Assembly: GCA_029936195.1 (NCBI GenBank)
Contig: JAPYUH010000001.1
Coordinates: forward strand, 10,741-74,740
DNA: 64,000 nucleotides
Source: Alphaproteobacteria bacterium
GTDB taxonomy: Bacteria; Pseudomonadota; Alphaproteobacteria; GCA-2731375
Direction: 5' to 3'
Made by a program: the position numbers and the translations under genes. The notes below the pieces were generated by a model. It was given only the letters and a program-made list of their open reading frames with translations. It had not been told where the DNA came from and ran no database searches. Positions 24,901 through 64,000 of this stretch are shown piece by piece; the stretch's first letter is position 1, and every line of letters starts with the position of its first letter.

Positions 24901-26519
24901 GTGCCGAACTCCTTGGTACCCTTGATATTCTGGTTGTGGCAGATGGACAGCGCGATGGCGATGGAGGTGCGGGTATCGCGCGGATCGATCATGCCGTCGT
25001 CGGATACGCGGGATGTGGCAAAGAGGCCTTTCGAGCGCTCCTCCGCCCAATGTTCCACCACGGCGGCGCGTTTCCCATCGGCCTCCTCGTCGAATTCGAT
25101 GCTGCGCCGTTCCGAGGCCCTGCGCTGTACGATGGACATCACGCCGGCCATCTGTTTCGGCCCCATGACGGCGATCTTGGCGGTGGGCCAGATGAAGGTG
25201 AAGCGCGTGCCATAGGCCCGCCCGCTCATGCCGTAATTGCCGGCGCCATAGGATGCCCCGACGATGATGGAGATGTGCGGCACGGTGGAGTTGGCCACCG
25301 CGTTGATCATTTTCGAGCCGTTCTTGGTAATGCCGCCCTGCTCGAAATCCGTGCCGACGATGTAGCCGGTGATGTTGTGCAGAAACAGCAGGGGCACGTC
25401 GATCTGATTACATAGCTGGATAAACTGCGCCGCCTTTTCCGAAGATTCCGACATCAGCGGCCCATTGTTGGCGACAATACCCATGGGATAGCCATGCACC
25501 GAGGCCCAGCCGGTGACCAGCGTGGGGCCGTACAGCGGCTTGAACTCCTCAAAGCGGGAGCCGTCCACGACCCGGGCGATGACGTCGCGGATATCAAAGG
25601 GCACGCGCAGGTCTTCGTTGACGATACCCAGCAGCTCTTCTTCGTCGAACAGCGGTGCATCGTTGGGCAGGCTGGGGCCGGGGCCCTGTTTGCGCCAGTT
25701 CAGGTGCGAAACCACTTCGCGGCAAATGCGGATGCCGTCGATCTCGTCCTCCGCCAGGTAATCCCCCAGGCCGGAGGTGCGGGTATGCATCTCGGCCCCG
25801 CCCAGGCTTTCCTCGTCCGCGTCTTCGCCCGTGGCCATTTTCACCAGGGGCGGGCCGCCCAAAAAGACCTTGGACTGTTTTTTGATGAAGATGTTGTAGT
25901 CGCTCATGCCCGGCTGATAGGCCCCGCCGGCGGTGGAGGCGCCGAACACCACGGAAATGGTCGGGATGCGCATTTTCGACAATTCGGTGATCTCGTAAAA
26001 CAACCGTCCGGATTCGGCGAAATGGCCGCCTTCCCGCCGGATCGCCGCCTCCGGATCGCCGCCGTCTTCGCCCCGAAGATCAGCGCCGGCGGATTCGACG
26101 AATTGCACATAGGGCAGGCGGTTCACCCGGGCGATTTCCAGGCCCCGCATCAGCTTCTTGGCGTTGAACTGGTTAAAGGCACCGGCCCGGACCGAGGGGT
26201 CATGGCCCAGGATCAGGCATTCCGTGCCCTCGATTACACCCAGGCCAACAACGAAGCCAGAGCCGACGTTGAAGTTGGAGCGCCAGGCCGCCAGCGGGCT
26301 GATTTCCATGAACGGGCTGTCGCGGTCCAGCACCAGGGCAATACGCTCCCGGATCGGCATCTTGTCACGGGCGGCCAGGCGGGCCATGGCCTCTTCGCCG
26401 CCGCCCTGGGCGACCTCTTCGTGCAGCTCGTCCAAAATGGTGAGCATTTCCAGCATCTTGTCGCGGTTGTCCCGGTATTCGTCCGAGCGCACGTCAAGGG
26501 TCGAGTCCAAAATGGGCAT
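24888..26519 (-). CDS. Acyl-CoA carboxylase carboxyltransferase (beta) subunit
   Basis: About 540-aa carboxyl-transferase typical of MCCase/GCCase beta subunits. Overlaps the alpha-subunit start. Confidence 0.85.
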   Translation of the reverse strand: MPILDSTLDVRSDEYRDNRDKMLEMLTILDELHEEVAQGGGEEAMARLAARDKMPIRERIALVLDRDSPFMEISPLAAWRSNFNVGSGFVVGLGVIEGTECLILGHDPSVRAGAFNQFNAKKLMRGLEIARVNRLPYVQFVESAGADLRGEDGGDPEAAIRREGGHFAESGRLFYEITELSKMRIPTISVVFGASTAGGAYQPGMSDYNIFIKKQSKVFLGGPPLVKMATGEDADEESLGGAEMHTRTSGLGDYLAEDEIDGIRICREVVSHLNWRKQGPGPSLPNDAPLFDEEELLGIVNEDLRVPFDIRDVIARVVDGSRFEEFKPLYGPTLVTGWASVHGYPMGIVANNGPLMSESSEKAAQFIQLCNQIDVPLLFLHNITGYIVGTDFEQGGITKNGSKMINAVANSTVPHISIIVGASYGAGNYGMSGRAYGTRFTFIWPTAKIAVMGPKQMAGVMSIVQRRASERRSIEFDEEADGKRAAVVEHWAEERSKGLFATSRVSDDGMIDPRDTRTSIAIALSICHNQNIKGTKEFGTWRM

Positions 26520-26550
26520 GAAGATACTCCAGAACTATGAACTGATTAAG

Positions 26551-27636
26551 TCAGCGGCTGAACGCGTCGCCGTCCCGCCAGGGAGACAGCTGGCCGGCGT
26601 AAACTTCCGGCCCCTTGCGGAAATGCGCGGCTTCCTCCAGGGTTTCGACGAACGGCATGTTGGCGGGGTAGAGCCTGTCGCCCCTGGGCCGGGCGCCGGA
26701 TTTCGAGACGTGACCCCACAGGGGATGGCCGACAACTTCCTCGGCGATGGCGGCGGCCTCGATCAATTTGTCCAGATCATAGCCGGTTTCGATGCCCATT
26801 TCGTGACACAGATTGACGAAATCCTCGGTCGGCACGTGACCCGCCGCCCGGCCATTGCCGCAATAGGGGCAACCGCCCATGCCGCCGATGGAGGTGTCAA
26901 ATTCACGCACGCCCAGTTGCAGGGCTTCATAATAGCTGGTCAGGGTGGAGCCGCGGCTGTCATGCAGGTGCATGTGAAAATCGGTGATCTCGGGATATTT
27001 GTCCTTGATCGCCGTCAAGGTCTCGCGCACCTCGTGGGGCATATTCCAGCCCATGGCGTCCAGGAATGACAATCTGTTCACTTTGATCCCGGCGCCGTGC
27101 CATTTCCCAATCATCAGGTCGAGCAATTCCATGCGCTGGGCCAGAGTGAATGGTCCTTCAAAGTTGGAGCCGAAGGGATTGCCCAGGCCCACGGCGCCGA
27201 ATTCGGCGTCCGCCTCCTTGGCGGCGGCGACGGCGGCATCCAGCCCGGCGATCTGTTCGGCCTGGGTGCGATTGTAGTTGCGCCGCGCGAAGGTGTCGCA
27301 CAGTTCCACGTTGGTGCCGAATTTCCGCCCCCGCACATCGATTTTTGGATAGTACTGATCGGCCCGCTCGAAACCGCGCTTGTTGAAGATTGCGGCGGTG
27401 TACTTGATGCCCGGCTTGGGTACGAAACGCTCGGCAATCTCGTCAATGCAGGCCATCGACGGCGTCCATTTGGGTGAGGCGAAGGAGCCGATGGAGATAA
27501 CCTTGGCGCCGGTCTCGCCCAAGGCGTCCAGCAGGCGCAGCTTTTCATCCACGGAAATATCGGCGCTTTCGATCTGCAGACCTTCGCGCATGGTGTCGTC
27601 GGTGATCATCACGGATTTCGGCAGCATGGACATCAT
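26551..27636 (-). CDS. HMGL-like (pyruvate carboxyltransferase-domain) lyase, hydroxymethylglutaryl-CoA lyase family; unusually long C-terminus
   Basis: N-terminal DDTMREGLQIE motif resembles the HMGL RDGLQ motif. A TIM-barrel metal-binding H..H pattern is present. At 361 aa it is longer than canonical HMG-CoA lyase. Confidence 0.65.
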   Translation of the reverse strand: MMSMLPKSVMITDDTMREGLQIESADISVDEKLRLLDALGETGAKVISIGSFASPKWTPSMACIDEIAERFVPKPGIKYTAAIFNKRGFERADQYYPKIDVRGRKFGTNVELCDTFARRNYNRTQAEQIAGLDAAVAAAKEADAEFGAVGLGNPFGSNFEGPFTLAQRMELLDLMIGKWHGAGIKVNRLSFLDAMGWNMPHEVRETLTAIKDKYPEITDFHMHLHDSRGSTLTSYYEALQLGVREFDTSIGGMGGCPYCGNGRAAGHVPTEDFVNLCHEMGIETGYDLDKLIEAAAIAEEVVGHPLWGHVSKSGARPRGDRLYPANMPFVETLEEAAHFRKGPEVYAGQLSPWRDGDAFSR

Positions 27637-27685
27637 GGTTCCTTCCAGAAATTGGGTTCCGTCTTTCTAGCAAGTGACGGCGTTG

Positions 27686-29188
27686 TTATTCAAGGTAGTC
27701 CGCCACGGCCTGGCATTGCGCGGGACCGAGGTGCAGGCCGCATTTGCTGCGCCGCCACAAAATGTCCTCCGCCGTCACCGCCCATTCGTTGGCCACCATA
27801 TAGTCGATTTCCCGCGCCGTCAGGCCGGCTCCGAAGTCATAACCCAGATCGGCGGCGGTTCGGGCCTTGCCAAGGATTTCCTTGGCCAAGGTGCCGTGCC
27901 GCGCTACCAATTGCCGGATCAGGTTGGCGGAGATATTCGGATAGTCCGCGGGTAGGTCGGACAAGTCGGACAGGCCGCCTTCGCCACCTGGCAAGGGTGA
28001 CGTGGCCGTCCAGTTCGGACTCAAATTGGGAAAATATGCGCTAAGGCGATCCATCGCGGCTTCCGCCAGACGACGATATGTGGTGATTTTGCCGCCGTAT
28101 ATGGAGAGTAAGGGCGCGCCGCCGCCATCCAATTCCAGAACATAATCTCGTGTGACCGCCGAAGGGTCTTCATCACCATCACCGAACAGGGGTCGGACGC
28201 CGGCGAAAGACCAGCAGACCTGTTCGGGCATGACGCGGCGGTCAAAATAGGCGTTCACCGCGTGACACAGATATTCGATTTCCGCCGTGGAAATTTGCAC
28301 CGTGCCCGGGTCGCCATCGAAGGGGACGTCGGTGGTTCCGATCAGGGAATAGGCGTCCTGGTAAGGCATGACGAATATCACCCTGCCGTCGGTGTGTTGC
28401 AGAATATAAGCATGCGCGCCGCCGAACAGCCGCGGGACGATAATGTGGCTGCCCTTGATCAGGACCGTCCGTCCCTTATGGCTTGATCGGGAGATGACCC
28501 CGAGGCGCGGCAGCACCTCTTCCACCCAGGGTCCGGCGGCATTGACCAGCACCTTGGCCTGAATTTCAATTCCCCGGCCATTGCCGTCAAGCAAGCTGGC
28601 ATGCCAGATGCCATTCTCCCATCGGGCGGAAACCAGCTCCGTGCGGGTCATGATGCGGGCGCCGCGATGGGCCGCATCCAGAGCATTCAGCACCACTAGG
28701 CGGGCATCGTCGACCCAGCAGTCGTAATAGGCAAACCCCTTGCGCATGTGGCCGCGCAGCGGTTCGCCAACGGCCTCCCGGCGCAGGTTCAGGGACGAGG
28801 AATTGGGCAGCGAGGGATGCGGGCCCAGATGGTCGTAAATGAACAGGCCCAGGCGCACCATCCAGGCCGGCCGGATGGTGTTGACCAGGGGCAGGACAAA
28901 GCGCAACGGCCTGACCAGATGCGGCGCGATGTGGAGCAGGACTTCACGTTCCGCCAAGGCTTCGCGCACCAGGCGGAATTCGAAATACTCCAGATAACGC
29001 AAGCCGCCGTGGATCAGCTTGCTGCTGGCCGAGGACGTGGCGCCCGCCAGATCGCCCCTTTCACACAAGGCGACGCGCAGACCCCGCCCGGCGGCGTCCC
29101 TGGCCATGCCGGCGCCGTTGATGCCGCCGCCGACGATCAGCAGGTCATGCAGCAGGTCCTTCGGCGGGTCGGGGATCTGGGTTGCCAT
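27686..29188 (-). CDS. FAD-dependent glycerol-3-phosphate dehydrogenase-like oxidoreductase (GlpD family)
   Basis: DLLIVGGGINGAGMARDAAGRGL followed by SSASSKLIHGGLRYLE. ATG at 29188 is preferred to the upstream TTG (29266). Confidence 0.8.
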   Translation of the reverse strand: MATQIPDPPKDLLHDLLIVGGGINGAGMARDAAGRGLRVALCERGDLAGATSSASSKLIHGGLRYLEYFEFRLVREALAEREVLLHIAPHLVRPLRFVLPLVNTIRPAWMVRLGLFIYDHLGPHPSLPNSSSLNLRREAVGEPLRGHMRKGFAYYDCWVDDARLVVLNALDAAHRGARIMTRTELVSARWENGIWHASLLDGNGRGIEIQAKVLVNAAGPWVEEVLPRLGVISRSSHKGRTVLIKGSHIIVPRLFGGAHAYILQHTDGRVIFVMPYQDAYSLIGTTDVPFDGDPGTVQISTAEIEYLCHAVNAYFDRRVMPEQVCWSFAGVRPLFGDGDEDPSAVTRDYVLELDGGGAPLLSIYGGKITTYRRLAEAAMDRLSAYFPNLSPNWTATSPLPGGEGGLSDLSDLPADYPNISANLIRQLVARHGTLAKEILGKARTAADLGYDFGAGLTAREIDYMVANEWAVTAEDILWRRSKCGLHLGPAQCQAVADYLE

Positions 29189-29314
29189 GGCCCCAGGGTG
29201 CCACCTATTGGCCGCGCCGTCGCCCCACTTGAGACTCTTTGACAAAGTGGTGGTAGGCTTGGCCAACCGCGTTCGCGGCGTAATTCAGCGAAACATTGTA
29301 GAGAGGAAATCCCC

Positions 29315-29737
29315 TTGGAACCCGAATTGCTACGGCCCCTGCCGAAACCCATGACCCCCGAAGCCAAACCATATTGGGATGGTCTGCGGGAAGGAAAATT
29401 GATGTTGCCTGAATGCAACGATTGCGGCAAAGCGTTCTTTTATCCGCGCATCGCCTGCCCAAATTGCCATTCCCGCAACGTCGGCTGGGTCCAGGCCAGC
29501 GGCAAGGGCAAGCTGTATTCCTTTCAGATCGCCTACCGTGCCCTGAACCCGGCCTTCAAGATCCCGCCGCCTTATGTGTTGGCCATGGTCGAGTTGGAGG
29601 AGGGCCCGCGCCTGATGTCAAACCTGATTAATGTCGAGGCCGACCCGGATGTGATCAAGTGCGACATGGCGGTCGAGGTCGTGTTCGAAAAACAGACCGA
29701 CGAGGTCACCATCCCCCTGTTTCAGCCCGCATCGTGA
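29315..29737 (+). CDS. Zn-ribbon/OB-fold protein (DUF35 family), partner of SCP-x-type thiolases
   Basis: CxxC...CxxC rubredoxin-like zinc ribbon (CNDCG...CPNCHS) followed by an OB fold. Confidence 0.75.
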   Translation: MEPELLRPLPKPMTPEAKPYWDGLREGKLMLPECNDCGKAFFYPRIACPNCHSRNVGWVQASGKGKLYSFQIAYRALNPAFKIPPPYVLAMVELEEGPRLMSNLINVEADPDVIKCDMAVEVVFEKQTDEVTIPLFQPAS

Positions 29738-29785
29738 AACGCGTGGCCCGAACCAACGTGACAATTGAATTTATGGAAGCGTAGA

Positions 29786-30931
29786 ATGAAAGACTTATCC
29801 AACTCCGTCGCCATTGTGGGCGTCGATGAATCCGATGAAATCGGCAAGTTGCCGGACGTCAGCCTGACCAGCCTGCATCTGCAGGCGGTCCACAATGCCG
29901 TGGCCGACGCCGGTCTGAAAATTTCCGATATTGATGGCGTCTTCACGGCCGGGCAGCATTCCCCGGCCATGTTGGGCGAGGCCCTGGGCATTACCCCGCG
30001 TTATGTGGACGGCACCTCCGTGGGCGGTTGCTCTTTTATCATGATGGTCGGCCACGCCGTGGCGGCGCTGCATCATGGGCTGTGTGACGTGGCGGTGATC
30101 TCGCACGGTGAAAGCGGTCGGTCGGGCACCGGCGTCACCCGTGCCCGCGACACCTCGTTGAGCGGGCAATATGAAATGCCCTATGGCTTTGGCGGCGCGC
30201 CGACATACTTCGGCATGATCACCAACCGGCATATGCATGAATACGGCACCACGTTGGAAGATTGGGCCCGGGTCGCCGTCTCCACCCGCGCATGGGCTGG
30301 CTTGAACCCCAAGGCCATGTTCCGCGATCCCATCACGGTCGAGGACGTGCTGAATTCACCGAAACTGTTCTATCCCTTCAATTTGCTGAACATCTGCCTG
30401 GTCACCGACGCGGGCGGCGCCGTTGTTTTGACCCGGGCCGAACGGGCCAAGGACTGCGCCAAAAAGCCCGTCTATGTGCGTGGCGCGGGCGAGGGCACGG
30501 AGCATACCCTGGTCACCAATATGACAGACATGCCCATGAGCAAGGCAACCGCCATTTCCGGCAACAAGGCGTTCGAGATGGCCGGTGTCACGCACGGCGA
30601 TTTCGATCACATCATGCTGTACGACGCATTTTCCTCCGGCCCGCCGATGATGCTGGAATCCCTTGGCTTTGCCGAGCCCGGTGAAGGTGTGCGGTTCTTC
30701 GACGAGGGCCGCTCGGACCCGGGCGGCTCCCTGCCCATCAACACCAACGGCGGCGGGCTGTCCTACACCCATTCGGGTATGTACGGCATCTTCCCCATTA
30801 TCGAGGCGGTGCGCCAACAGCGCGGCGAATGCGGTGACCGTCAGGTGCCAGGGGTCAAATGCTCGTTGGTCAACGGCATGGGCGGCATGCTCTCGGCGGC
30901 GGGCACCATTGTGCTCTCACACGAGACCTAG
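29786..30931 (+). CDS. Thiolase-like protein (SCP-x/non-specific lipid-transfer thiolase family)
   Basis: Thiolase-fold N-terminus (VAIVGVDESDEIG) and C-terminal active-site region (GGGLSYTHSGMYG...NGMGGM). Adjacent to the DUF35 gene. Confidence 0.8.
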   Translation: MKDLSNSVAIVGVDESDEIGKLPDVSLTSLHLQAVHNAVADAGLKISDIDGVFTAGQHSPAMLGEALGITPRYVDGTSVGGCSFIMMVGHAVAALHHGLCDVAVISHGESGRSGTGVTRARDTSLSGQYEMPYGFGGAPTYFGMITNRHMHEYGTTLEDWARVAVSTRAWAGLNPKAMFRDPITVEDVLNSPKLFYPFNLLNICLVTDAGGAVVLTRAERAKDCAKKPVYVRGAGEGTEHTLVTNMTDMPMSKATAISGNKAFEMAGVTHGDFDHIMLYDAFSSGPPMMLESLGFAEPGEGVRFFDEGRSDPGGSLPINTNGGGLSYTHSGMYGIFPIIEAVRQQRGECGDRQVPGVKCSLVNGMGGMLSAAGTIVLSHET

Positions 30932-30953
30932 GGGAGCGGAGGAGAATCATCTG

Positions 30954-32015
30954 ATGGATTTCGGGGTCAGTTGCGCCAAGATTGACGAAGTCGGCTTTGT
31001 CCGGCATGCGGAAAATCTGGGCTATGACTTTTGCTGGGTAACCGACAGCCAAATGATCCGCTCCAACCCCTGGGCCGTTCTGGCGCTCATTGCGCAGCAG
31101 ACCCAGACCATTCGCATCGGCACCGGCGTCGCCGTGCCGGGCCTGCGCCTGGCGCCGGTGGCGGCGAACGGCATCGCCACCACCGCCCGCCTGGCGCCGG
31201 GGCGCACCTTCATGGGGATCGGCACCGGCAACACGGCTATGCGGACCATGGGGCAGCGGCCGACCACCATCAAGGCCTTCGGCGAATATATTCGTGTCGT
31301 CCGCGCCTTGCTGGATGGCGAGGAGGTCGACTACACCCTGAACGGCGTCACCCAGCCCATTCGATTTCAAAATACCGAACTGCGCTATCTGGATCTGGAT
31401 CACCACATTCCCATCCACGTGGCGGGTTTCGGACCCAAGGCGCAGGCCCTGGCGGGGGAATTGGGCGACGGCCTGATCACCGGCATCCCGCGCGGCGGCG
31501 CCATTCCCTGGGCGCTCGGCAATGTGAAATCCGGCGCCGACCGGGCCGGGCGCGATCTGGATGGTTTTTTCACAACGGCCCTGGTCAACATGTTGCTGTT
31601 GATGCCCGGTGAAACCTTGGAATCTGAACGGGTGGTCGCTGAATGCGGTTCTTCCATCATGGCGAACGTGCATTTCATGGTGGATTGGGTGAAGGAAACG
31701 GGGGGCGATCCGCCGGACTTCATCAAGCCGATCTGGAATGACTACATGGCGTTCCACAACGCCCGCGACGCCGAGACCCAGCATCAAAAACTGCATGAAA
31801 GCCACTACAGCTATCTCGACCCGGAGGAGGCGCGCTTTATCACGCCGGAAGTGATCCGCAATTTCTGCATCGCCGGACAGCCGGAAGAAATCGTTGATCA
31901 GTTGCTGGACCTGGAACGCCAGGGCCTGAACGCCATCAACTTCATCGCGCCCCTGGAGCAGCAATACCGCATGGCCGAGGACTTCGCGGACAAGGTCATA
32001 TCCCGCATGAAATAA
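30954..32015 (+). CDS. LLM-class (luciferase-like) flavin-dependent oxidoreductase
   Basis: Bacterial luciferase-like TIM-barrel signature. ATG at 30954 has a GGAGGAGAA SD. The track's upstream extension is rejected. Confidence 0.8.
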   Translation: MDFGVSCAKIDEVGFVRHAENLGYDFCWVTDSQMIRSNPWAVLALIAQQTQTIRIGTGVAVPGLRLAPVAANGIATTARLAPGRTFMGIGTGNTAMRTMGQRPTTIKAFGEYIRVVRALLDGEEVDYTLNGVTQPIRFQNTELRYLDLDHHIPIHVAGFGPKAQALAGELGDGLITGIPRGGAIPWALGNVKSGADRAGRDLDGFFTTALVNMLLLMPGETLESERVVAECGSSIMANVHFMVDWVKETGGDPPDFIKPIWNDYMAFHNARDAETQHQKLHESHYSYLDPEEARFITPEVIRNFCIAGQPEEIVDQLLDLERQGLNAINFIAPLEQQYRMAEDFADKVISRMK

Positions 32016-32027
32016 GGAGACCGCGCA

Positions 32028-32423
32028 ATGGCATTGACATTGGAAGAGGCCAACCGCATCGCCCAAGGCGCCCTCGCCAAGGCGGCGGCATTGAATATCA
32101 AGATCAATGTCGCGGTCTGCGACGTGGGCGGACGACTGCTGGTTTTCCAGCGCATGGACGGGGCCATGTGGGCCGGGGTTTACGGCAGTCAGGGCAAGGC
32201 CGTCGCCTCCGCGTCTTTTGGACGGCCCAGTGGTGATATGACGGAACGGGCCGGACATCCGACCTTCCGGGCCATCGTGGCCCATTCCGGCGGCGCCATG
32301 ATCATGGGCCAGGGCGCCGTGCCGGTGATCCGCGACGGCGAGGTGCTGGGCGCCTGCGGCGTTGGCGGCGGCACGGGCCAGGAGGACGAGGATTGCGCCC
32401 AGGCGGGCGTTGATCTGCTATAG
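32028..32423 (+). CDS. GlcG/HbpS-like heme-binding protein (DUF336)
   Basis: 131 aa with the DUF336 pattern (AVCDVGGRLL...GGAMIMGQGAVPV...GACGVGGG). Confidence 0.7.
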   Translation: MALTLEEANRIAQGALAKAAALNIKINVAVCDVGGRLLVFQRMDGAMWAGVYGSQGKAVASASFGRPSGDMTERAGHPTFRAIVAHSGGAMIMGQGAVPVIRDGEVLGACGVGGGTGQEDEDCAQAGVDLL

Positions 32424-32435
32424 GGGCGACGGCAT

Positions 32436-33221
32436 ATGGCCATTGTCAAGAATGCCGTCATGGAGCGACTGGGCGCCGGCAAGATCGCGGCCAGTTTTAA
32501 TGTCAGCCGCCTGCGCACCGTGGAAATTCCCCAAATCGCCAAGGCCTGCGGTTTTCATTGGATCTTCATCGATCTAGAGCATTCCACCATGGACCTGGAC
32601 ATGGCCGGCCAAATCTGTGCCGCCGCCTTGCCCACGGCCGTTACGCCCATCGTTCGCGTGCCCGAGGGGGATGTGAACCGGGCCGCCCGCATCCTGGACG
32701 CCGGCGCCCAGGGCGTTATCTTCCCCCATGTGCAAAACGCGGTTGAGGCGCGCGCTTTCACCGCTGCCTGCCGCTTTCCCCCCATCGGTACGCGCTCGCT
32801 GATCTATGGCGGACCGCAGCTTGAATATGAAAACCTGCCCCCCGGCGAGGTCATGGCCGGGATCAACGGCGAAACTCTTGTGGTCATGATGATTGAAACG
32901 CCCGAGGCCGTGGCCAACGCCGCTGAAATTGCGGCCGTGGACGGCGTCGATCTGCTGTTGGTGGGCGGCTCGGACCTGTCGGCGACCATGGGTATTGCCG
33001 GGCAGTTCAGCCATCCCGATTTCCTTGCCGCCATCGACACGGTGATCGCGGCCGCCAAGGGCGCGGGCAAATGGCCTGGTCTGGGCGGGATCTATGACGA
33101 GGCGATCCTGCCGGACTTTGCCGATCGCGGCATGCGCTTTTTCCTGGGCGGGGCGGATATGTCGTTCATCCTGGCGGGCGGCAAATCCCGCGGCGCCTTT
33201 TTCAATGGGTTGTCGGTTTGA
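32436..33221 (+). CDS. HpcH/HpaI-family class II (2-keto-3-deoxy-acid/pyruvate) aldolase
   Basis: Family pattern G..W...IDLEH...R.E (CGFHWIFIDLEHS...VRVPEG), comparable to RhmA/HpaI. Confidence 0.8.
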   Translation: MAIVKNAVMERLGAGKIAASFNVSRLRTVEIPQIAKACGFHWIFIDLEHSTMDLDMAGQICAAALPTAVTPIVRVPEGDVNRAARILDAGAQGVIFPHVQNAVEARAFTAACRFPPIGTRSLIYGGPQLEYENLPPGEVMAGINGETLVVMMIETPEAVANAAEIAAVDGVDLLLVGGSDLSATMGIAGQFSHPDFLAAIDTVIAAAKGAGKWPGLGGIYDEAILPDFADRGMRFFLGGADMSFILAGGKSRGAFFNGLSV

Positions 33222-33328
33222 CGTCAAACCCATTCCCAAACAGCCTGGTTTTGGCTACCATTTAGATCCTACCTCAATCTGGCCGCTTGGATTATCGCGG
33301 CCCCCGCCACGCATCAACAGGACCGATC

Positions 33329-35608
33329 ATGCCCGCAATTCTGGATGGGATTACCATCCTCGACCTCAGTACAGGCCCCGCCGCCGCCCTTGCCACCATG
33401 TTGTTGGGCGATCAAGGCGCGCGCGTCATCCGCCTTGTCGAGCCCGACGCGCCTGTTTTTCGGGACGGCGGCTTTGTCATTTGGGATCGCGGCAAGGAAC
33501 GCATGGCACTGGATATTGAGCAAGACAATGGCCAATTCCATGCCTTGGTCGCGGGCGCCGATGTTTTGGTGGAGGATTTCGCGCCAAGCTCGGCCCGCCA
33601 GGAATTGGTCAAAGCTGAAACGTTGGCCCGGATCAATTCCCGCTTGACCGCCTGTTCCCTGACCGCCTATGGCAAGCGCGGCGCGCTGAAGGATGAACCG
33701 CCGATCGAGGATCTGGTGCTGGCCCGCATGGGTGTTTTGGGCGGCATGCCGGGCTTCCGCCCGCCGCCCGTGCATGTGGTCCATCCCCTGCCCACCGTGG
33801 GCGCCGCCATACTGGCCTGCCTGGGCATTGCCGCCGCCTTGCTGGCCCGCGAAGGGACCGGGCGCGGACGCACGGTGGAGACTTCGTTGATGGCCGGCGC
33901 CTTGTTGTATCACCCCAAGGTCATTGGCGAGAATTTGGACGCGCATGTCTTTCAGACCCACCCATCTGGCAGCGCGCCTTTTTACAGTGTCTATGAATGC
34001 GGCGACGGCAACTGGGTGCAATTGGGTTGCGTGCATGTGCGCTTCATCGCCATCGCCGCCAACCTCATGGGCATCGGCGATCTGGTGGCCGAGCCGCGCT
34101 TCAATGGCGGCGGCGGAGGCATGACGGCCGGGGACGAGGCGGAATTGCGCGCCGTTCTTACCCGCGTGGTTGCCACGAAGCCCCTGGCGGAATGGGCCGA
34201 GGCGTTCGAGGCGGCGGATGTGCCCTTCGCGCCCGTGCGCCCGACCGAGGACGGCATGACCGATCCTCAGGTCATCCATAACGACATGGTGGTCACCCTG
34301 GATGATCCCGAACGTGGGCCCGTGACGCAAATGGGCGTGCCGCTTGGGTTTAGCCAAACGCCCGGCGCCGTTCAGGGGCCGAGGGCGGGCGGGAATTCCG
34401 AGATTACCCTTGATGCCATTCAGGCGGGCACTGCCGTCGCGGGCGCGATGGATCCGCCGCCCCTGGCCGGCATCCGCATTCTGGAAATCACCAACCTGAT
34501 CGCCGGCCCCACGGGCGGGCGCCTGCTGGCCGATCTGGGCGCCGATGTGATCAAGCTGGAACCGCACACGGGCGATCTGTCCCGGCCCATCGGGCGGTCA
34601 TATTTCTATAATCTGAATTTCAACAAACGCTCGGTCTCCGTCGATACCAGCACGGACAAGGGGCGGGAAGTGGTGCAGCGCATCGCCGCCCGGTCGGACG
34701 CCCTGATGGCGAACCTGCGTCCCGGCGCCACGGCCCGCATGGGTATCGGGCCGGAGAACCATCCCCAACTGATCGAAACCCACCTGACCGGCTATGGCCC
34801 CACCGGGCCTTACGCCAAACGCCCCGGCATTGACCCCCTGGCCCAGGCCCTCATGGGCATGTCCCGGGCCCAGGGCGGCTTGGACAATCCACCCGTGTTC
34901 CCGGCCCAACTGGCGCCCACCGATTTCACCACGGGCGCCATGGGTGCCTTTGGCACCGTATTGGCAATCTATGCCCGGACCCGTCACGGCATTGTGCAAC
35001 GGGTTGACAGCAACCTGCTGAATGGCGCGGTGCTGCTGTCGTCGGCCTGGTTTTCGGCCTATGAAGGGCGGCCCGTCAGGCCCTTGGCGGACACGGACCA
35101 ATATGGCCTGAACCCCTACCATCGGCTCTATCGTCTGAATGACGGCTGGATCTATGTCACCGCCGGGAATGCGGAACACCGCAATGCCATCTGTCAGGTC
35201 TCGGGCGTTGCCGCCGGGGGCAGCGCGGAAGGCCGCCACCCCAACCTATCCCCGCTGGCCCAATCCCTCGCCGAGGGGTTCGCCGGCCGGGGATTGGCCG
35301 ATACCCTTGCCGCGTTGCGAAAGGCCGGCGTGCCGGTGGCCGAGGCGCAAAAGGGTGGCAGCGAGCTGTTCCTCGACCACCCGCATACCCAGGAGAACGA
35401 TATGGTGGCGACCCTGAGCCACCCCATTGCGGGCCGGTTGCGGGTGGCCCATCGCTACATTCAATTCGGCAATACCGAACCGGCCAATCACCTTCCCACG
35501 CCGCTGTTGGGCGAGCAGACCGACGAGGCCCTGCGCGAGGCCGGATATAACGAAGATGAGATCCGCGCCCTGCATGATGACGGCATTGTCCTGACCGAAA
35601 CGGCGTAA
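33329..35608 (+). CDS. Tandem-fused family III CoA-transferase (two CaiB/BaiF domains in one 759-aa polypeptide)
   Basis: The N-terminal half (ILDLSTGPAAALATMLLGDQGARVIRLVEP) and the C-terminal half (ILEITNLIAGPTGGRLLADLGADVIKLEPH) each carry the family III CoA-transferase N-terminal signature. ATG at 33329. Confidence 0.8.
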   Translation: MPAILDGITILDLSTGPAAALATMLLGDQGARVIRLVEPDAPVFRDGGFVIWDRGKERMALDIEQDNGQFHALVAGADVLVEDFAPSSARQELVKAETLARINSRLTACSLTAYGKRGALKDEPPIEDLVLARMGVLGGMPGFRPPPVHVVHPLPTVGAAILACLGIAAALLAREGTGRGRTVETSLMAGALLYHPKVIGENLDAHVFQTHPSGSAPFYSVYECGDGNWVQLGCVHVRFIAIAANLMGIGDLVAEPRFNGGGGGMTAGDEAELRAVLTRVVATKPLAEWAEAFEAADVPFAPVRPTEDGMTDPQVIHNDMVVTLDDPERGPVTQMGVPLGFSQTPGAVQGPRAGGNSEITLDAIQAGTAVAGAMDPPPLAGIRILEITNLIAGPTGGRLLADLGADVIKLEPHTGDLSRPIGRSYFYNLNFNKRSVSVDTSTDKGREVVQRIAARSDALMANLRPGATARMGIGPENHPQLIETHLTGYGPTGPYAKRPGIDPLAQALMGMSRAQGGLDNPPVFPAQLAPTDFTTGAMGAFGTVLAIYARTRHGIVQRVDSNLLNGAVLLSSAWFSAYEGRPVRPLADTDQYGLNPYHRLYRLNDGWIYVTAGNAEHRNAICQVSGVAAGGSAEGRHPNLSPLAQSLAEGFAGRGLADTLAALRKAGVPVAEAQKGGSELFLDHPHTQENDMVATLSHPIAGRLRVAHRYIQFGNTEPANHLPTPLLGEQTDEALREAGYNEDEIRALHDDGIVLTETA

Positions 35609-35767
35609 ACGAAATCTCCAGCGGCCGCCTTTGTTGCGGTCGCTTCCAGGGTCATAGCGGAAATGGCCTCCGCGCCGTTTGATGTTCGAGATGCGCGAGG
35701 AGCGAGCATGGAGCGCCCGCAACAATCACGCATGGATTAGCTGAACACCTGCCGGTACACTCTCGCC

Positions 35768-36541
35768 ATGTCCGAAAGAACAAAACGCAGGCTAACGACT
35801 ATCGTGGCCGCAGACATCGCCGGTTTTTCACGCTTGGTTGGGAACGACGAAGAAGCCACTCTTGCGGCCCAACGTGGCCATCGTACCAAACTAATTGAAC
35901 CACTGCTTGCCGAACACCAAGGCCGGATCGCCAATACAGCCGATGATAGCTTCCTGTTTGAATTTCAGAGCGCGGTAGAGGCGGTGCGTTGTTCGATTGC
36001 CGTGCAGGATGGTATGGCCGAGAGAAACCTTGGCGTCGCCTCTGATCGACGCATAGAGTACCGCATTGGCGTCAACGTTGGTGACGTGGTGCCCGATGGC
36101 GATGACCTATTGGGCGACGGCGTCAACATTGCGGCGCGTCTCGAAAGCCTTTGTTCGCCAGGCGGCATTATTCTGTCCGATGACGCCTATAGGCAGGTGC
36201 GTGACCGCCTTGAGATTACTTGGGAGGATGGCGGCGAGCACAAGGTCAAAAACATCTTACGGCCAGTGCAGGTTTGGCGGTGGTCAACAGTAAATTCACA
36301 AAAAACCGCCGTAGTAGAAATCACGGATCATGATGCGCGACCGCTACACGATAAGCCTTCTATTGCCGTCCTGCCATTCGACAACATGTCCGGCGACCCG
36401 GAGCAAGAATATTTCTCAGACGGTATTGCCGAAGATATTATCACTGACCTTTCCAGATTTTCCATGGCAAGTAAGCCTGCATCAATTTCGAGTTGCCGAA
36501 TGTCCCAAATGGGTCGAGAGCAGCTAGTAGGAAATCACTGA
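35768..36541 (+). CDS. Class III adenylate/guanylate cyclase catalytic-domain protein, C-terminally truncated relative to its family (possible gene remnant)
   Basis: CHD cyclase domain (TIVAADIAGFSRL...GDGVNIAARLES). The ORF stops 18 aa after the conserved linker motif (SIAVLPFDNMSGDPEQEYFSDGIAEDIITDLSRF) that in homologs precedes a long TPR region. GC3 is lower than in neighbouring genes. Confidence 0.6.
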   Translation: MSERTKRRLTTIVAADIAGFSRLVGNDEEATLAAQRGHRTKLIEPLLAEHQGRIANTADDSFLFEFQSAVEAVRCSIAVQDGMAERNLGVASDRRIEYRIGVNVGDVVPDGDDLLGDGVNIAARLESLCSPGGIILSDDAYRQVRDRLEITWEDGGEHKVKNILRPVQVWRWSTVNSQKTAVVEITDHDARPLHDKPSIAVLPFDNMSGDPEQEYFSDGIAEDIITDLSRFSMASKPASISSCRMSQMGREQLVGNH

Positions 36542-36600
36542 TATCATGCTCGAGGCTGGGGGCATGGCCGACATCGACCATCACTGCTCTGGCGGCTTGC

Positions 36601-38457
36601 TTAGTGAATATTGAACTGCAGCGCGGCCAATCGGGCGTAGAGGCCGTTTTGTTCCACCAGTTCGTCGTGGCGGCCCATTTCGATCACCGTGCCGTTTTCC
36701 ATCACCACGATCCGGTCGGCTTTCAACACCGTGGCCAGTCGATGGGCGATGACGATGGTCGTGCGGTCGGCCATCAGGCTTTCCAGGGCATCCTGCACGG
36801 CGCGTTCGGACTCCGCGTCCAGGGACGATGTTGCCTCGTCCAGCAACAGGACCGGCGGGTTGGCCAGGATCGCCCGGGCGATGGACAGACGCTGACGCTG
36901 GCCGCCCGACAGGCGCACGCCCTTCTGGCCCAGAAAGCTGTCGTATTTTTCCGGCAAGGCGTCGATAAAATCGGCGGCATGGGCAGCCTCGGCGGCGGCG
37001 CGCAAGTCCGCCTCGCTGGCGTCGGGCCGGCTGTAGAGAATGTTTTCCCGTGTATTGGCGGCAAAGATAACCGGGTCCTGGGGCACCAGGGAAATGCGGC
37101 CGCGGGCCTCGGCCGGGTCGGCCTGGCGCAGATCGACGCCGTCCAAGGAAACCGTGCCGGCCTGGGGGTCATAAAACCGCAGCAATAACTGAAAGACCGT
37201 GGTCTTGCCCGCCCCCGACGGCCCCACGAGGGCGACGGTTTCGCCGGGCGCGACCTCCAGATCAAAGTTTTTCAGGGCCGGCAGATCGGGCCGCGAGGGG
37301 TATTCAAAGGTCACGTCGCGGAAACTGATGGCGCAACTGCTCAAGCTGGGCAGCGGCGTCGTCGGGTCGGCCACCTCGATGCTGGGTTGCACCGCCAACA
37401 GCTCCATCAGGCGTTCGGCGGCACCGGCGGCGCGCTGCAGCTCGCCATACACTTCCGCCAAGGCGCCCACGGCGCCGGCTACGAGGATGGCGTAGAAGAC
37501 AAACGCGGCGAGCTGCCCGCCGCTCATCTCTCCCGCGATCACGTCCTTGGCGCCGATCCAGACCACCAGATCAATGGCGCCAAAGATCAATAGCATGACC
37601 AGGGCGGTCAGCCATGCCCGCGCCCTGGTCCGCCGCACGGCAACGGCAAAAGCCTCGTCGGTGACCTTGCCGAATTTCAGCCGGTCGATGGCCTCATGGC
37701 AAAAGGCCTGCACCACCTGGATGGCGCTCAGACTTTCCTCGGCATAGCTGGAAATATCGGCAATGCGATCCTGGCTGTCACGGGACAGCCGCCGCACCTT
37801 CCTGCCGAAAATCAAAATCGGCAGAATAACCACCGGCAACAGGGCGAAGACCAAACCAGTCAGCTTGGCGGAGGAAATGACCAGCAGCACGCTGCCGCCC
37901 ATGAACATCAAGATATTGCGCAGGGCAATGGAGGCGGTGGATCCCACCACGGTCTGGATCAACGTGGTGTCGGCGGTCAGGCGCGAGAGCACCTCGCCGG
38001 TGCGCATGGTTTCGAAGAACGCCGGGCTCAATCCGATGACGTGGCTATATACCGCGCCGCGAATGTCGGCGATGATCCGTTCCCCCAGCCAGGTCACCAG
38101 GTAATACCGGGCAAAGGTTGCGGCGGCCAATACGCAGACAATACCGAGCAGAGCCAGAAAATATTGATCGATCAGGATCTGATCCTGGCCAAAGCCATGA
38201 TCGATGACCCGGCGGATGGCCTGGCCAATGGCCAGCACGGATCCGGCCGATATGATCAAGGCGATGCCGGCGGCCACGGCGGACCATTTATAGGGGGCCA
38301 GATAGGGCAGGATACGGCGCAGGCCGGCGACGCTCTTGCGTTCCTCCCGTTCCCGATCAGGGACTTTATTTCGCAATCTGTATCGCCCTTTTCCTGCCCT
38401 GGCGGCCGCACCGACATTTCGCTGGGGTATAACAATTGTACCCCGACCACACAACAT
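36601..38457 (-). CDS. Fused ABC exporter permease/ATP-binding protein (MsbA/ABCB type)
   Basis: Six-TM domain followed by an NBD ([34 protein letters not shown]). Start uncertain: ATG 38457, or an internal TTG at 38373 with an AGGAAAAGGG SD. Confidence 0.8.
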
Positions 38458-38518
38458 AGCGCCTTGCGCATGGCCTCGGCTTTGGTTATACACCCATCGC
38501 AGTTTACGGAGCAGCCGA

Positions 38519-62058: not shown

Positions 62059-62472
62059 ATGGCGCCTTCAGCCCCGATGGAGCTGTTGGATTGCGTCGCC
62101 TTCCTGCTGGTGGACGGTGAACGCTTTCTGGTGGAGCGGCGGCGGGAGGACAAGGTGGTGGACCCGGGCGCCGTCGCCATTCCCGGCGGTCACCTGGAGC
62201 CGGGGGAAAGTCCACTGGAGGCCTTGCATCGTGAATTGCACGAGGAATTAGGCGTCACTACGGCCAATCCGCAATTCATTTGTACCTTGCTGAACCCATC
62301 CGAGGAATTCCGGAAGCTCGAATATTACGCCATTCACGAATGGACGGGTGAAATTGAGAACAACGAAGCGGAAGCGCTGCTGTGGCTGTCCCTGGATAAT
62401 TTCGACGGTCTGGACCTGGCAGTGGACCGGGTGGCCCTGGCGGAATACATCCGGGTTATTGGGAACCGGTAG
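62059..62472 (+). CDS. NUDIX hydrolase
   Basis: Nudix box GGHLEPGESPLEALHRELHEELGV. Confidence 0.8.
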   Translation: MAPSAPMELLDCVAFLLVDGERFLVERRREDKVVDPGAVAIPGGHLEPGESPLEALHRELHEELGVTTANPQFICTLLNPSEEFRKLEYYAIHEWTGEIENNEAEALLWLSLDNFDGLDLAVDRVALAEYIRVIGNR

Positions 62473-62639
62473 CCGCCTCCCCCTGTTTGCCAACTTTGCA
62501 ACTGTAGAGCCATCAACGGCCTTTGCGATGCCCGCGCATTGAATCCAGAAAACCTGGATCATTCGCGTTGGAGAAGTTTTGGGTATTGCCGGTAGTATCC
62601 ACGCACGCGCGTCAAACACCGCGTTACTGGGTTCTCTAA

Positions 62640-62796
62640 ACACGAAATTCCATATTTAATGAATAGAATTATTTATTAATATTATACGATAGTAATATAA
62701 AAATTTATACTATCAATTTTAAGCTAGTGATTTATTATGTCCATTCGGCATACTCTATTTGGTTTAGTATACTGGCATCATTAGGAGTATTTTCCT
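62640..62796. promoter_or_regulatory. Strongly AT-rich (~25% GC) island upstream of the GAF-PAS sensor gene
   Basis: About 150 bp of AT-rich sequence in a ~64% GC background. AGGAG SD lies 7 nt before the TTG at 62797. Confidence 0.5.
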
Positions 62797-64000
62797 TGTC
62801 GTCGGATTGTTCACAGCGTGCGCCTGGCGCAAGTCAGACCCCCGTCGGGAAAATGTTTAACTCGACCGACGCTACGGGGACCGGTGCAAGCCTGCTGTCG
62901 CGGCAACTGGAACTGGTGGGCAAACTGGCGGCCAGCACGGTCCTCATAGATGAGGGTTTGCAACCGGCCCTGCGGGAAATCGCGGAAATTGCCGGGGAAG
63001 TGCTGGACGTGGACCGCGTGGCGATTTGGAGAATTGGGCGGGACGAGACGGAGATCACTTGCGGCGATGCCTTCCAACGAAGCGACGGCAGTCATGTTCA
63101 TGGCCAAACGACAAAAATTTCGGAGCATCGGGAACATATCGAATTTTTGCGGCAGCAGCATGTGGTCGCGGTGGCCGATCTGAACGAAGTGAACGCGTTA
63201 CCGCGGTCAGGTTCTGATTTATTGAAATCACTGGGTGATACCGCACTGCTTGAGGCGACTGTTTGGCGCGAAGGCCGATTTATCGGGACGATGGCCTTCG
63301 CGATGCTTGGTACGCCACGTATCTGGAGTGAGGAAGAACAGGCCTTGGCTGGCGTGTTTGTTGAATTCTTTTCCCGTATTTTTGCAACCCACGAGCGGCG
63401 GGAGCTGGAAGCCGTGCTCCGGGATTACGCCGAATCCGCATCGGATTGGTTTTGGGAGATGGATGCTGATGGCCGTTTTACCTATATCTCGGACCGGATT
63501 TTCGGAGCGACCGGTGATCGTCCGACATCGATTTATGGGAATACTTTTGAGCAGATGGGCCATGAAGTATCTTCCGAGGACCAGCGCAGTCTCAACAGCG
63601 CCCTTGCCAACCGGCAACCATTTCAAAATCTCGTTAGTTGGCGGCAACTGCGAGACGGCAGGGTCACATGGACACGATCAGGTGGCGTGCCGATATTTGA
63701 TGATGAAGGACAATTCGCCGGATATCGAGGCTCGAGTGCTGATATCACCGACACCAAGATGCTTGAACTGGAGAAAACTGAACAAGCAGAATTATTAGAG
63801 GCAATTTTGGAAAATATGCCAACAATTGTCTCGTTTTGTGACCGCGAGTTGCAGTTAGTATTTGTGAACAATGCACACGCAAAATATCATGGACTTGAAA
63901 AATCTGAAATAGTTGGCAAGACTTTGTTAGAAGTTTTGGGGCCGTCGACGGGGGCAAAATCTGAAGATTTTATCCATGAAGTCATCCGGACCGGCGAGCC
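62797..64000 (+). CDS. GAF-PAS signal-transduction protein; the ORF runs off the window end
   Basis: Hand translation gives an open frame to position 64000, with a GAF-like segment followed by PAS-like segments (WFWEMDADGRFTYISDRI...). Start is TTG 62797 with SD, or ATG 62854. The last ~400 nt have strikingly low GC3. Confidence 0.7.

Follow-up and report, generated by a model that had tools for sequence, protein, structure and literature searches.

In this study, we found that the open reading frame (ORF) at positions 35768-36541 (+ strand) of the window, by which we mean the whole 64,000-nucleotide stretch of DNA that was analyzed, is probably a pseudogene, the non-functional remainder of a class III nucleotidyl cyclase gene that was acquired horizontally. 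The ORF, which starts with ATG and encodes 257 amino acids (aa) including a junk tail, was truncated, atypical in composition, restricted to one species, located at a break in synteny and marked by a unique substitution (G59D). In a sister lineage, its counterpart had evolved neutrally and had lost its start codon, and was demonstrably dispensable. In public databases the ORF was represented by entries of 245 or 237 aa, annotated as 'adenylate/guanylate cyclase domain-containing protein' and also as 'hypothetical protein'; the identical protein was present as a 245-aa sequence called from a downstream GTG.

The truncation was examined with a database search that yielded approximately 8000 homologs, the best 119 of which were aligned. 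An earlier note on this DNA, made by a model from the letters alone, had described the gene as truncated relative to full-length homologs, and the alignment agreed with this view. Among the best 119 of the ~8000 homologs, the sequences past the motif PDKPSIAVLPFxNMSGDPEQEYFxDG..ITxLSR read 'xxLFVIARNSSFTYKG...LGVRYVLEGSVR...', and this continuation formed a TolB_N-like domain (PF04052 in P0028), followed by TPR repeats (P0059, L015). In contrast, the window ORF diverged completely, and its residues from position 233 on were essentially absent from the family (same best 119 homologs). In the ORF, the motif SIAVLPF...DLSRF was located at aa 198-231, within a segment composed of a variable linker and an orphan N-terminal piece of the TolB_N-like domain (PSIAVLPF...DLSRF; 36287-36460, + strand; aa 174-231; GC3 0.48). 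Alignment to the full-length homologs placed the breakpoint sharply after DLSRF (~nt 36460), beyond which the ORF ran for 26 further codons; the 18 codons counted in the earlier note corresponded instead to the form found in a sister lineage with a CGA to TGA change. The ORF kept 231 homologous residues, some 40% of the original gene from its front, compared with about 590 in full-length relatives (the closest of these, L015, reconstructed to about 590 aa). Only the first ~40 residues of the TolB_N-like domain were retained, and no TPR was found in the ORF by Pfam. The missing TPR-coding part, which might have been present elsewhere, was not recovered: tblastn with the absent TolB_N/TPR portion against the window and longer contigs of the same species gave nothing at E<0.1.

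The non-homologous junction (36461-36600, + strand) consisted of the 26-codon tail with its stop codon (36461-36541) and a 59-bp spacer. The previous remark that the 3' end abuts a convergent ABC exporter gene was correct, as the stop codon of the ORF and that of the exporter (36601) were 59 bp apart. No match in any frame, IS end, RNA family or terminator could be detected in the junction, and Rfam gave 0 matches at E<=1 for both the junction and the upstream spacer. Several candidate explanations for this DNA were rejected. First, a decayed and frameshifted continuation of the cyclase gene was suggested by eye ('ASISSC' for 'ARNSSF' and 'GCTCGAGG' for YVLEG), but Smith-Waterman comparison with the P0005 gene (p=0.54) and a profile HMM built from the 100 family positions that follow the break, run on all six frames of 36463-36600, were both negative. 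Thus, the break is sharp. Second, an IS remnant was rejected: the junction did not resemble the IS elements found interrupting the homologs, it occurred only once in the window, and terminal inverted repeats were absent. Third, a small RNA, terminator or promoter in either the junction or the upstream spacer was dismissed, with no Rfam match and with candidate sites occurring at the frequency of shuffled sequence. No mobile-element gene, tRNA or repeat scar was found at the stump locus, and no IS scar is left there to show how the deletion arose.

The upstream spacer (35609-35767, + strand; 159 bp) separates the stop codon of the CoA-transferase gene from the ATG of the cyclase ORF. Homology to the genomes of relatives ended at this stop codon, and homology to foreign cyclase loci started about 12-40 bp 5' of this ATG. 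No sigma-70-like promoter was found in these 159 bp, and promoter- or terminator-like matches in the spacer and junction were not commoner than in shuffled sequence, none of them being meaningfully placed. The ORF start was not preceded by a Shine-Dalgarno motif. We considered this as a possible sign of no expression and dropped it, because the homologs also lack such a motif and its absence is thus uninformative on expression.

With regard to the cyclase domain itself (35789-36286, + strand; aa 8-173), Guanylate_cyc (PF00211) was the sole Pfam domain in the ORF (aa 11-161; 34.5 bits, gathering threshold 21.9), and its score fell within the family-typical range of 34-43 bits. The domain had been described as intact. 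This was true for the metal-binding Asp residues (D16 and D60) and the transition-state residues (N120 and R124), all of which were present, at columns at least 90% conserved or invariant among the best 119 of the ~8000 homologs. However, it was not true for the near-invariant Gly of the 'GD' motif, directly before the second metal-binding Asp, which was absent from the ORF. The replacement, G59D (codon 35942-35944), was common to all stump copies, whereas position 59 was Gly in 99% and Asp in none of the best 119 of the ~8000 homologs. A further change in the TolB_N entry motif, P194H, was also present in all stump copies and in 0 of about 115-119 homologs (best of ~8000). Four positions ahead of the second metal-binding Asp, enzymes of the adenylate-cyclase type carry a Lys that specifies the substrate; in the ORF it was replaced by Asn56. 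The same Asn was found in the closest sub-clade (P0003/4/5/17/28/67) and is thus a trait of the clade, not a sign of decay. The overall number of violations at conserved sites (7 of 91) was slightly above the family mean of ~5% (best 119 of ~8000 homologs), and was rejected as a signal of decay since it was no outlier; only G59D and P194H were notable. The AlphaFold model showed a confident cyclase fold (beta-alpha-beta-beta-alpha-beta) for aa 8-173 (pLDDT >94), a poorly defined TolB_N stump for aa 174-231 (pLDDT 55-71) and a disordered tail for aa 234-257 (pLDDT <50).

Analysis of the distribution revealed that the stump was present in only one species-level lineage of deep-sea Alphaproteobacteria, with copies from several marine metagenomes and alphaproteobacterial MAGs. 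Three stump-bearing lineages were recognized: the window type (L001-L006), an earlier-stop type (L012-L014) and a divergent type (L007-L011 and L067). At least 6 independent contigs carried the window allele without a single difference. The junction from the CoA-transferase gene through the stump to the ABC gene was reproduced to the base in more than 12 contigs of the three diverged lineages, for which both samples and assemblers were independent (Logan, NCBI, ENA and JGI). In the L012 lineage, R258 was changed to a stop codon (CGA to TGA) eight codons before the window stop, giving the 18-codon tail. Had short single-domain cyclases ending in this C-terminus formed a conserved family, this would have argued against the reading of the earlier note. 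No such family was observed: the C-terminus was seen within one species only (at least 96% nucleotide identity). Other matches of roughly 230-260 aa on long contigs were IS-split or fragmented full-length genes; P0004 and P0005 are IS-split genes, and P0092 and P0106 are frameshift-fragmented full-length genes. Several independent homologs, P0002, P0092 and P0106 (L147 and L148), lost the reading frame at one shared spot, at most a few codons from the 'ITALSR' linker. The rest of the cyclase gene followed in L147 and L148 as separate small ORFs, and neighboring genes were fragmented too, so that frameshifts of long-read sequencing are the likely cause.

Comparison of the stump between the window and divergent (L008) lineages showed 22.5 nonsynonymous and 7.5 synonymous changes (dN/dS 0.82-0.93), whereas seven flanking genes in the same comparison showed 16 and 69, respectively (dN/dS 0-0.17), at equal synonymous divergence (Fisher p=1.3e-7 for the contrast). 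The ratio of the stump was compatible with neutrality (p=0.67) and rejected a flank-like constraint of omega=0.1 (p=2e-8). Its divergence over all sites (3.9%) was near the synonymous divergence of the flanks (3.5%). In the divergent lineage, which had identical synteny and flanks 98-99% identical to those of the window, the start codon was changed from ATG to ATT (polarized with outgroups). In addition, N103K, V104F and G105A converted the core motif GVNVGD into GIKF(A/V)D, most of the changes in this lineage were from G/C to A/T, and the Pfam score of this allele dropped to 16.9 bits, below the threshold of 21.9. On the other hand, apart from the truncation, the window allele carried only G59D and P194H, the start-loss and nonsense changes being found in sister lineages.

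The apparent conservation of the window allele was considered as a sign of constraint and rejected. Derived changes were distributed between the divergent and window lineages as 89:16 in the upstream flank, 21:2 in the ABC gene and about 22:2 in the cyclase (Fisher p=0.74 for flanks versus cyclase). This equal asymmetry in the flanks implies that the conservation reflects a short branch and not selection. Between the window allele and that of L012 there were 6 differences, 4 of them in the tail, too few for a selection test. Thus, the evidence for neutrality comes from sister lineages, since the window branch is too short to be tested. On the terminal branch of the window copy since its split from other cyclases, dN/dS was about 0.3, suggesting that most of that history was under constraint, although the ratio of nonsynonymous to synonymous changes against the closest homologs is an unclean control, the comparators being disrupted genes themselves. 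Along window positions 25804-38376, the divergent lineage (L007-L011 and L067) had the longer branch (89 versus 16 derived substitutions over 10 kb), and its flanks showed a GC>AT bias of 63:12.

These observations also bear on the alternative that the stump of the window sub-lineage is a working, deregulated or constitutive cyclase making cAMP or cGMP, and that only the sisters have lost the gene. The earlier note had left the choice between such a cyclase and a pseudogene undecided; the sister lineages favor the pseudogene, and the deregulated cyclase now appears rather unlikely. The ORF is open with an ATG, its catalytic residues align, its Pfam score is typical of the family, its predicted fold is confident (pLDDT >94) and its sequence is identical across several samples, all of which would be expected of a working enzyme; the missing Shine-Dalgarno motif, being shared with the homologs, does not count against it. 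However, G59D beside the second metal-binding Asp was seen in 0 of the best 119 of ~8000 homologs, a sister lineage whose flanks are 98-99% identical can do without the gene and lets it drift neutrally, and the identity of the window copies is explained by a genome-wide short branch (p=0.74). Moreover, there was no promoter-like site upstream, and both the TolB_N stump and the tail were unstructured in the model. A more specific version, that the window allele is kept as a minimal regulator-free cyclase providing a constitutive low-level source of cNMP after the loss of TolB_N and TPR, with the sisters secondarily losing the gene and with G59D and the Lys to Asn change tuning or altering the active-site chemistry, seems quite unlikely to us.

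With regard to the origin of the stump, its composition was clearly different from that of its surroundings. As had been noticed before, GC3 was lower than in the flanking genes: 0.535 for the whole ORF and 0.44 for the segment 36290-36541, compared with 0.77 for the three nearest genes. Against the 41 coding-like ORFs of the window (mean 0.73, sd 0.05), the GC3 of the ORF had a z-score of -3.8, and its codon usage (RSCU) a z-score of -3.6, so that the ORF ranked last in the window on both counts. At 76% aa identity, the nearest non-identical homologs belonged to other organisms, and two of the three were located in transposase-packed DNA. In one of these (P0004/L015), an IS3-family element interrupted the gene at DGITE|EDII, a point eight codons ahead of the window break, and the remaining TolB_N-TPR part resumed after the IS. 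In another (P0005; L016/L017), a different IS3 element cut the gene off after the TolB_N domain. Additional fragments of cyclases of the same clade, with 75-90% nucleotide identity to window 35732-36291, were observed in both orientations in an IS-dense region of metagenome ERZ21829562 (L016:5133-5566), next to phage-like genes (D5_N primase and terminase). It appears that this cyclase clade multiplies and breaks up within mobile DNA. The GC3 of the closest homologs (0.62-0.68) was below that of the host (0.77) and above that of the stump (0.54), and on the terminal branch of the window copy GC>AT changes outnumbered AT>GC changes by 27 to 10. Hence, the low GC3 reflects partly foreign inheritance and partly later AT-biased drift.

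The genomic context of the stump was constant: HpcH aldolase, CoA-transferase, stump, convergent ABC exporter, rpmE, DUF1465 and HSP20. The left native flank is a gene encoding a two-domain CoA_transf_3 protein (33329-35608, + strand), the last gene of a conserved catabolic operon. The right native flank is the ABC exporter gene (ABC_membrane and ABC_tran; 36601-38376, - strand), part of the block ABC-rpmE-DUF1465-HSP20. A scan with the CoA-transferase, using one genome per species, identified 38 related loci, all in MAGs, many of them marine or deep-sea and several labelled as Rhodospirillaceae-like; the closest relative was OC3_3000m_MAG_220, with 92% identical DNA. In all 38 loci, synteny with the window stopped at the CoA-transferase stop codon, and none had a cyclase, ABC gene or rpmE downstream of the CoA-transferase. 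The idea of a common ancestral gene at this position was rejected, as the downstream gene differed in each species and gives no guide to the state before the insertion on the CoA-transferase side. In a metagenome scan with the ABC exporter, relatives at 82-85% identity kept the order DUF1465-rpmE-ABC, and beyond the ABC stop most of them had a convergent OmpA/MotB-like gene where the window has the cyclase fragment; a cyclase beside the ABC gene was found in none of these relatives. The restriction to one species and the synteny breaks on both sides thus place the stump at the junction of two otherwise conserved blocks.

Some other features of the neighborhood are worth recording. The operon at window 29315-35608 (+ strand) contains zf-ChsH2/OB-fold (DUF35-like), thiolase_C (SCP-x type), luciferase-like monooxygenase, HbpS-like and HpcH/HpaI aldolase genes as well as the gene for the 759-aa double CoA_transf_3 protein, a gene set that recalls clusters for the degradation of steroids or branched side chains. 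The CoA-transferase could be traced to relatives with identities as low as about 58%; in the six closest species, the synteny upstream of it was examined as well. On the other side, a related contig (L071:7808-13499) carried, beyond the ABC gene, a MotA-like gene, a Pro/Ala-rich OmpA-family gene, suhB and efp; the OmpA/MotB-suhB-efp block was found nowhere in the 64 kb of the window, which implies that the window species has rearranged or lost a sizeable segment here. The start of the ABC exporter (window 36601-38493, - strand) was ambiguous, with 591, 616 or 618 aa called in different contigs; its longest ORF comprised 630 aa from a GTG, and rpmE was divergent, about 140 bp upstream. Finally, the end of the window (62500-64000), downstream of a NUDIX-like ORF (62059-62472), had a low GC content of 0.51-0.54 and a strong positive GC skew, and no convincing ORF, Rfam family or tRNA was found in it.

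The foreign origin proposed in the earlier note is thus supported by the atypical composition, by the absence of the gene from relatives on both flanks and by the location of the nearest homologs in IS- and phage-rich DNA. A native gene, that is, an old resident cyclase cut by a local deletion whose low GC3 arose wholly by AT-biased decay, seems very unlikely. Such a scenario could draw on the strong GC>AT bias, with ratios of 63:12 for the flanking genes in the long lineage and 27:10 for the cyclase branch, and on the lack of any mobile-element gene flanking the fragment in the window. However, relatives of neither flank had a cyclase here, and GC3 was already 0.62-0.68 in the closest homologs, which share 76% aa identity and lie in IS-dense DNA of other organisms. 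Furthermore, a net surplus of about 17 GC>AT changes over 657 nt would not suffice to lower GC3 from 0.77 to 0.54, and the protein is still 76-78% identical to its homologs, so any decay must have been short. An assembly artefact, in which a chimeric metagenome join produced the apparent truncation, might be suspected of a source known from MAGs and metagenome contigs only, but is excluded for practical purposes because more than 12 independent contigs from three lineages carry the same junction base for base.

The pseudogene reading suggests the following order of events, which we infer from the above comparisons. The original gene would have encoded a cyclase - TolB_N-like - TPR protein of about 590 aa, and a copy from a clade residing in IS-rich mobile DNA would have entered the common ancestor of the species-level lineage. 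A deletion or rearrangement may then have brought the terminus of the CoA-transferase operon next to the 3' end of the ABC-rpmE block. In the same event, the gene would have lost everything past codon ~231, and the stump would have come to run on into 140 bp of unrelated DNA that is by chance open for 26 codons. The habits of the family suggest that an IS may have been involved in this deletion. Since then, the stump would have been drifting under the GC to AT mutation bias of the genome with no detectable selection. One sub-lineage would have lost the start codon together with the Pfam-level cyclase signature, and another would have gained the earlier stop. In the window sub-lineage, whose allele is presumably inactive as well, the stump may still be open only because too little time has elapsed on a very short branch.

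Regarding annotation, the ORF should be flagged as a pseudogene fragment and left out of estimates of cNMP signalling capacity in these uncultured deep-sea Alphaproteobacteria. The locus would also be a clean example, if a small one, of an unsuccessful gene transfer, in which a single species displays three stages of decay and the flanking genes act as internal controls, and it draws attention to a cyclase - TolB_N - TPR clade that travels with IS-rich DNA and is repeatedly disrupted. Otherwise, it would be an ordinary outcome of gene flux, and the main practical value of the finding lies in the correction of annotation.

Among known proteins, the ORF most resembled alphaproteobacterial cyclases (COG2114) with a cyclase - TolB_N-like (COG5616/PF04052) - TPR (COG0457) architecture, such as P0028, P0059 and the IS-split gene of L015. 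It was 53-76% identical to these over aa 1-231 and shared with the multidomain cyclases the entry into the TolB_N-like domain (PDKPSIAVLPFxNMSGDPEQEYFxDG...LSR), but it lacked about 360 residues (the rest of the TolB_N-like domain and all TPR), in place of which there were 26 unrelated codons. The biological role of this architecture has, to our knowledge, not been characterized, and a literature search found nothing specific on it. The nearest solved structure was PDB 3mr7, a stand-alone cyclase domain with 149 bits to the ORF over aa 5-173, which shares both metal-binding Asp residues and the transition-state Asn and Arg with the ORF and whose fold is also predicted for it; the next nearest was Ma1120 (4wp8). 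Class III catalytic domains are often active in vitro when isolated. Both structures have the GD motif, and 3mr7 and most of the family read K-T-x-G-D where the window ORF reads NTADDS (Lys to Asn and Gly to Asp). Bacterial pseudogenes arising from failed or eroding horizontal transfers are a general concept, from which the stump locus differed in nothing notable, no IS scar being left there. It shared with such pseudogenes the foreign composition, one-species distribution, truncation, dN/dS near 1 (in the sister lineage), segregating start-loss and nonsense alleles (in sister lineages) and AT-biased drift. Taken together, the evidence makes it quite likely that the ORF is an ordinary pseudogene and not a new kind of cyclase.
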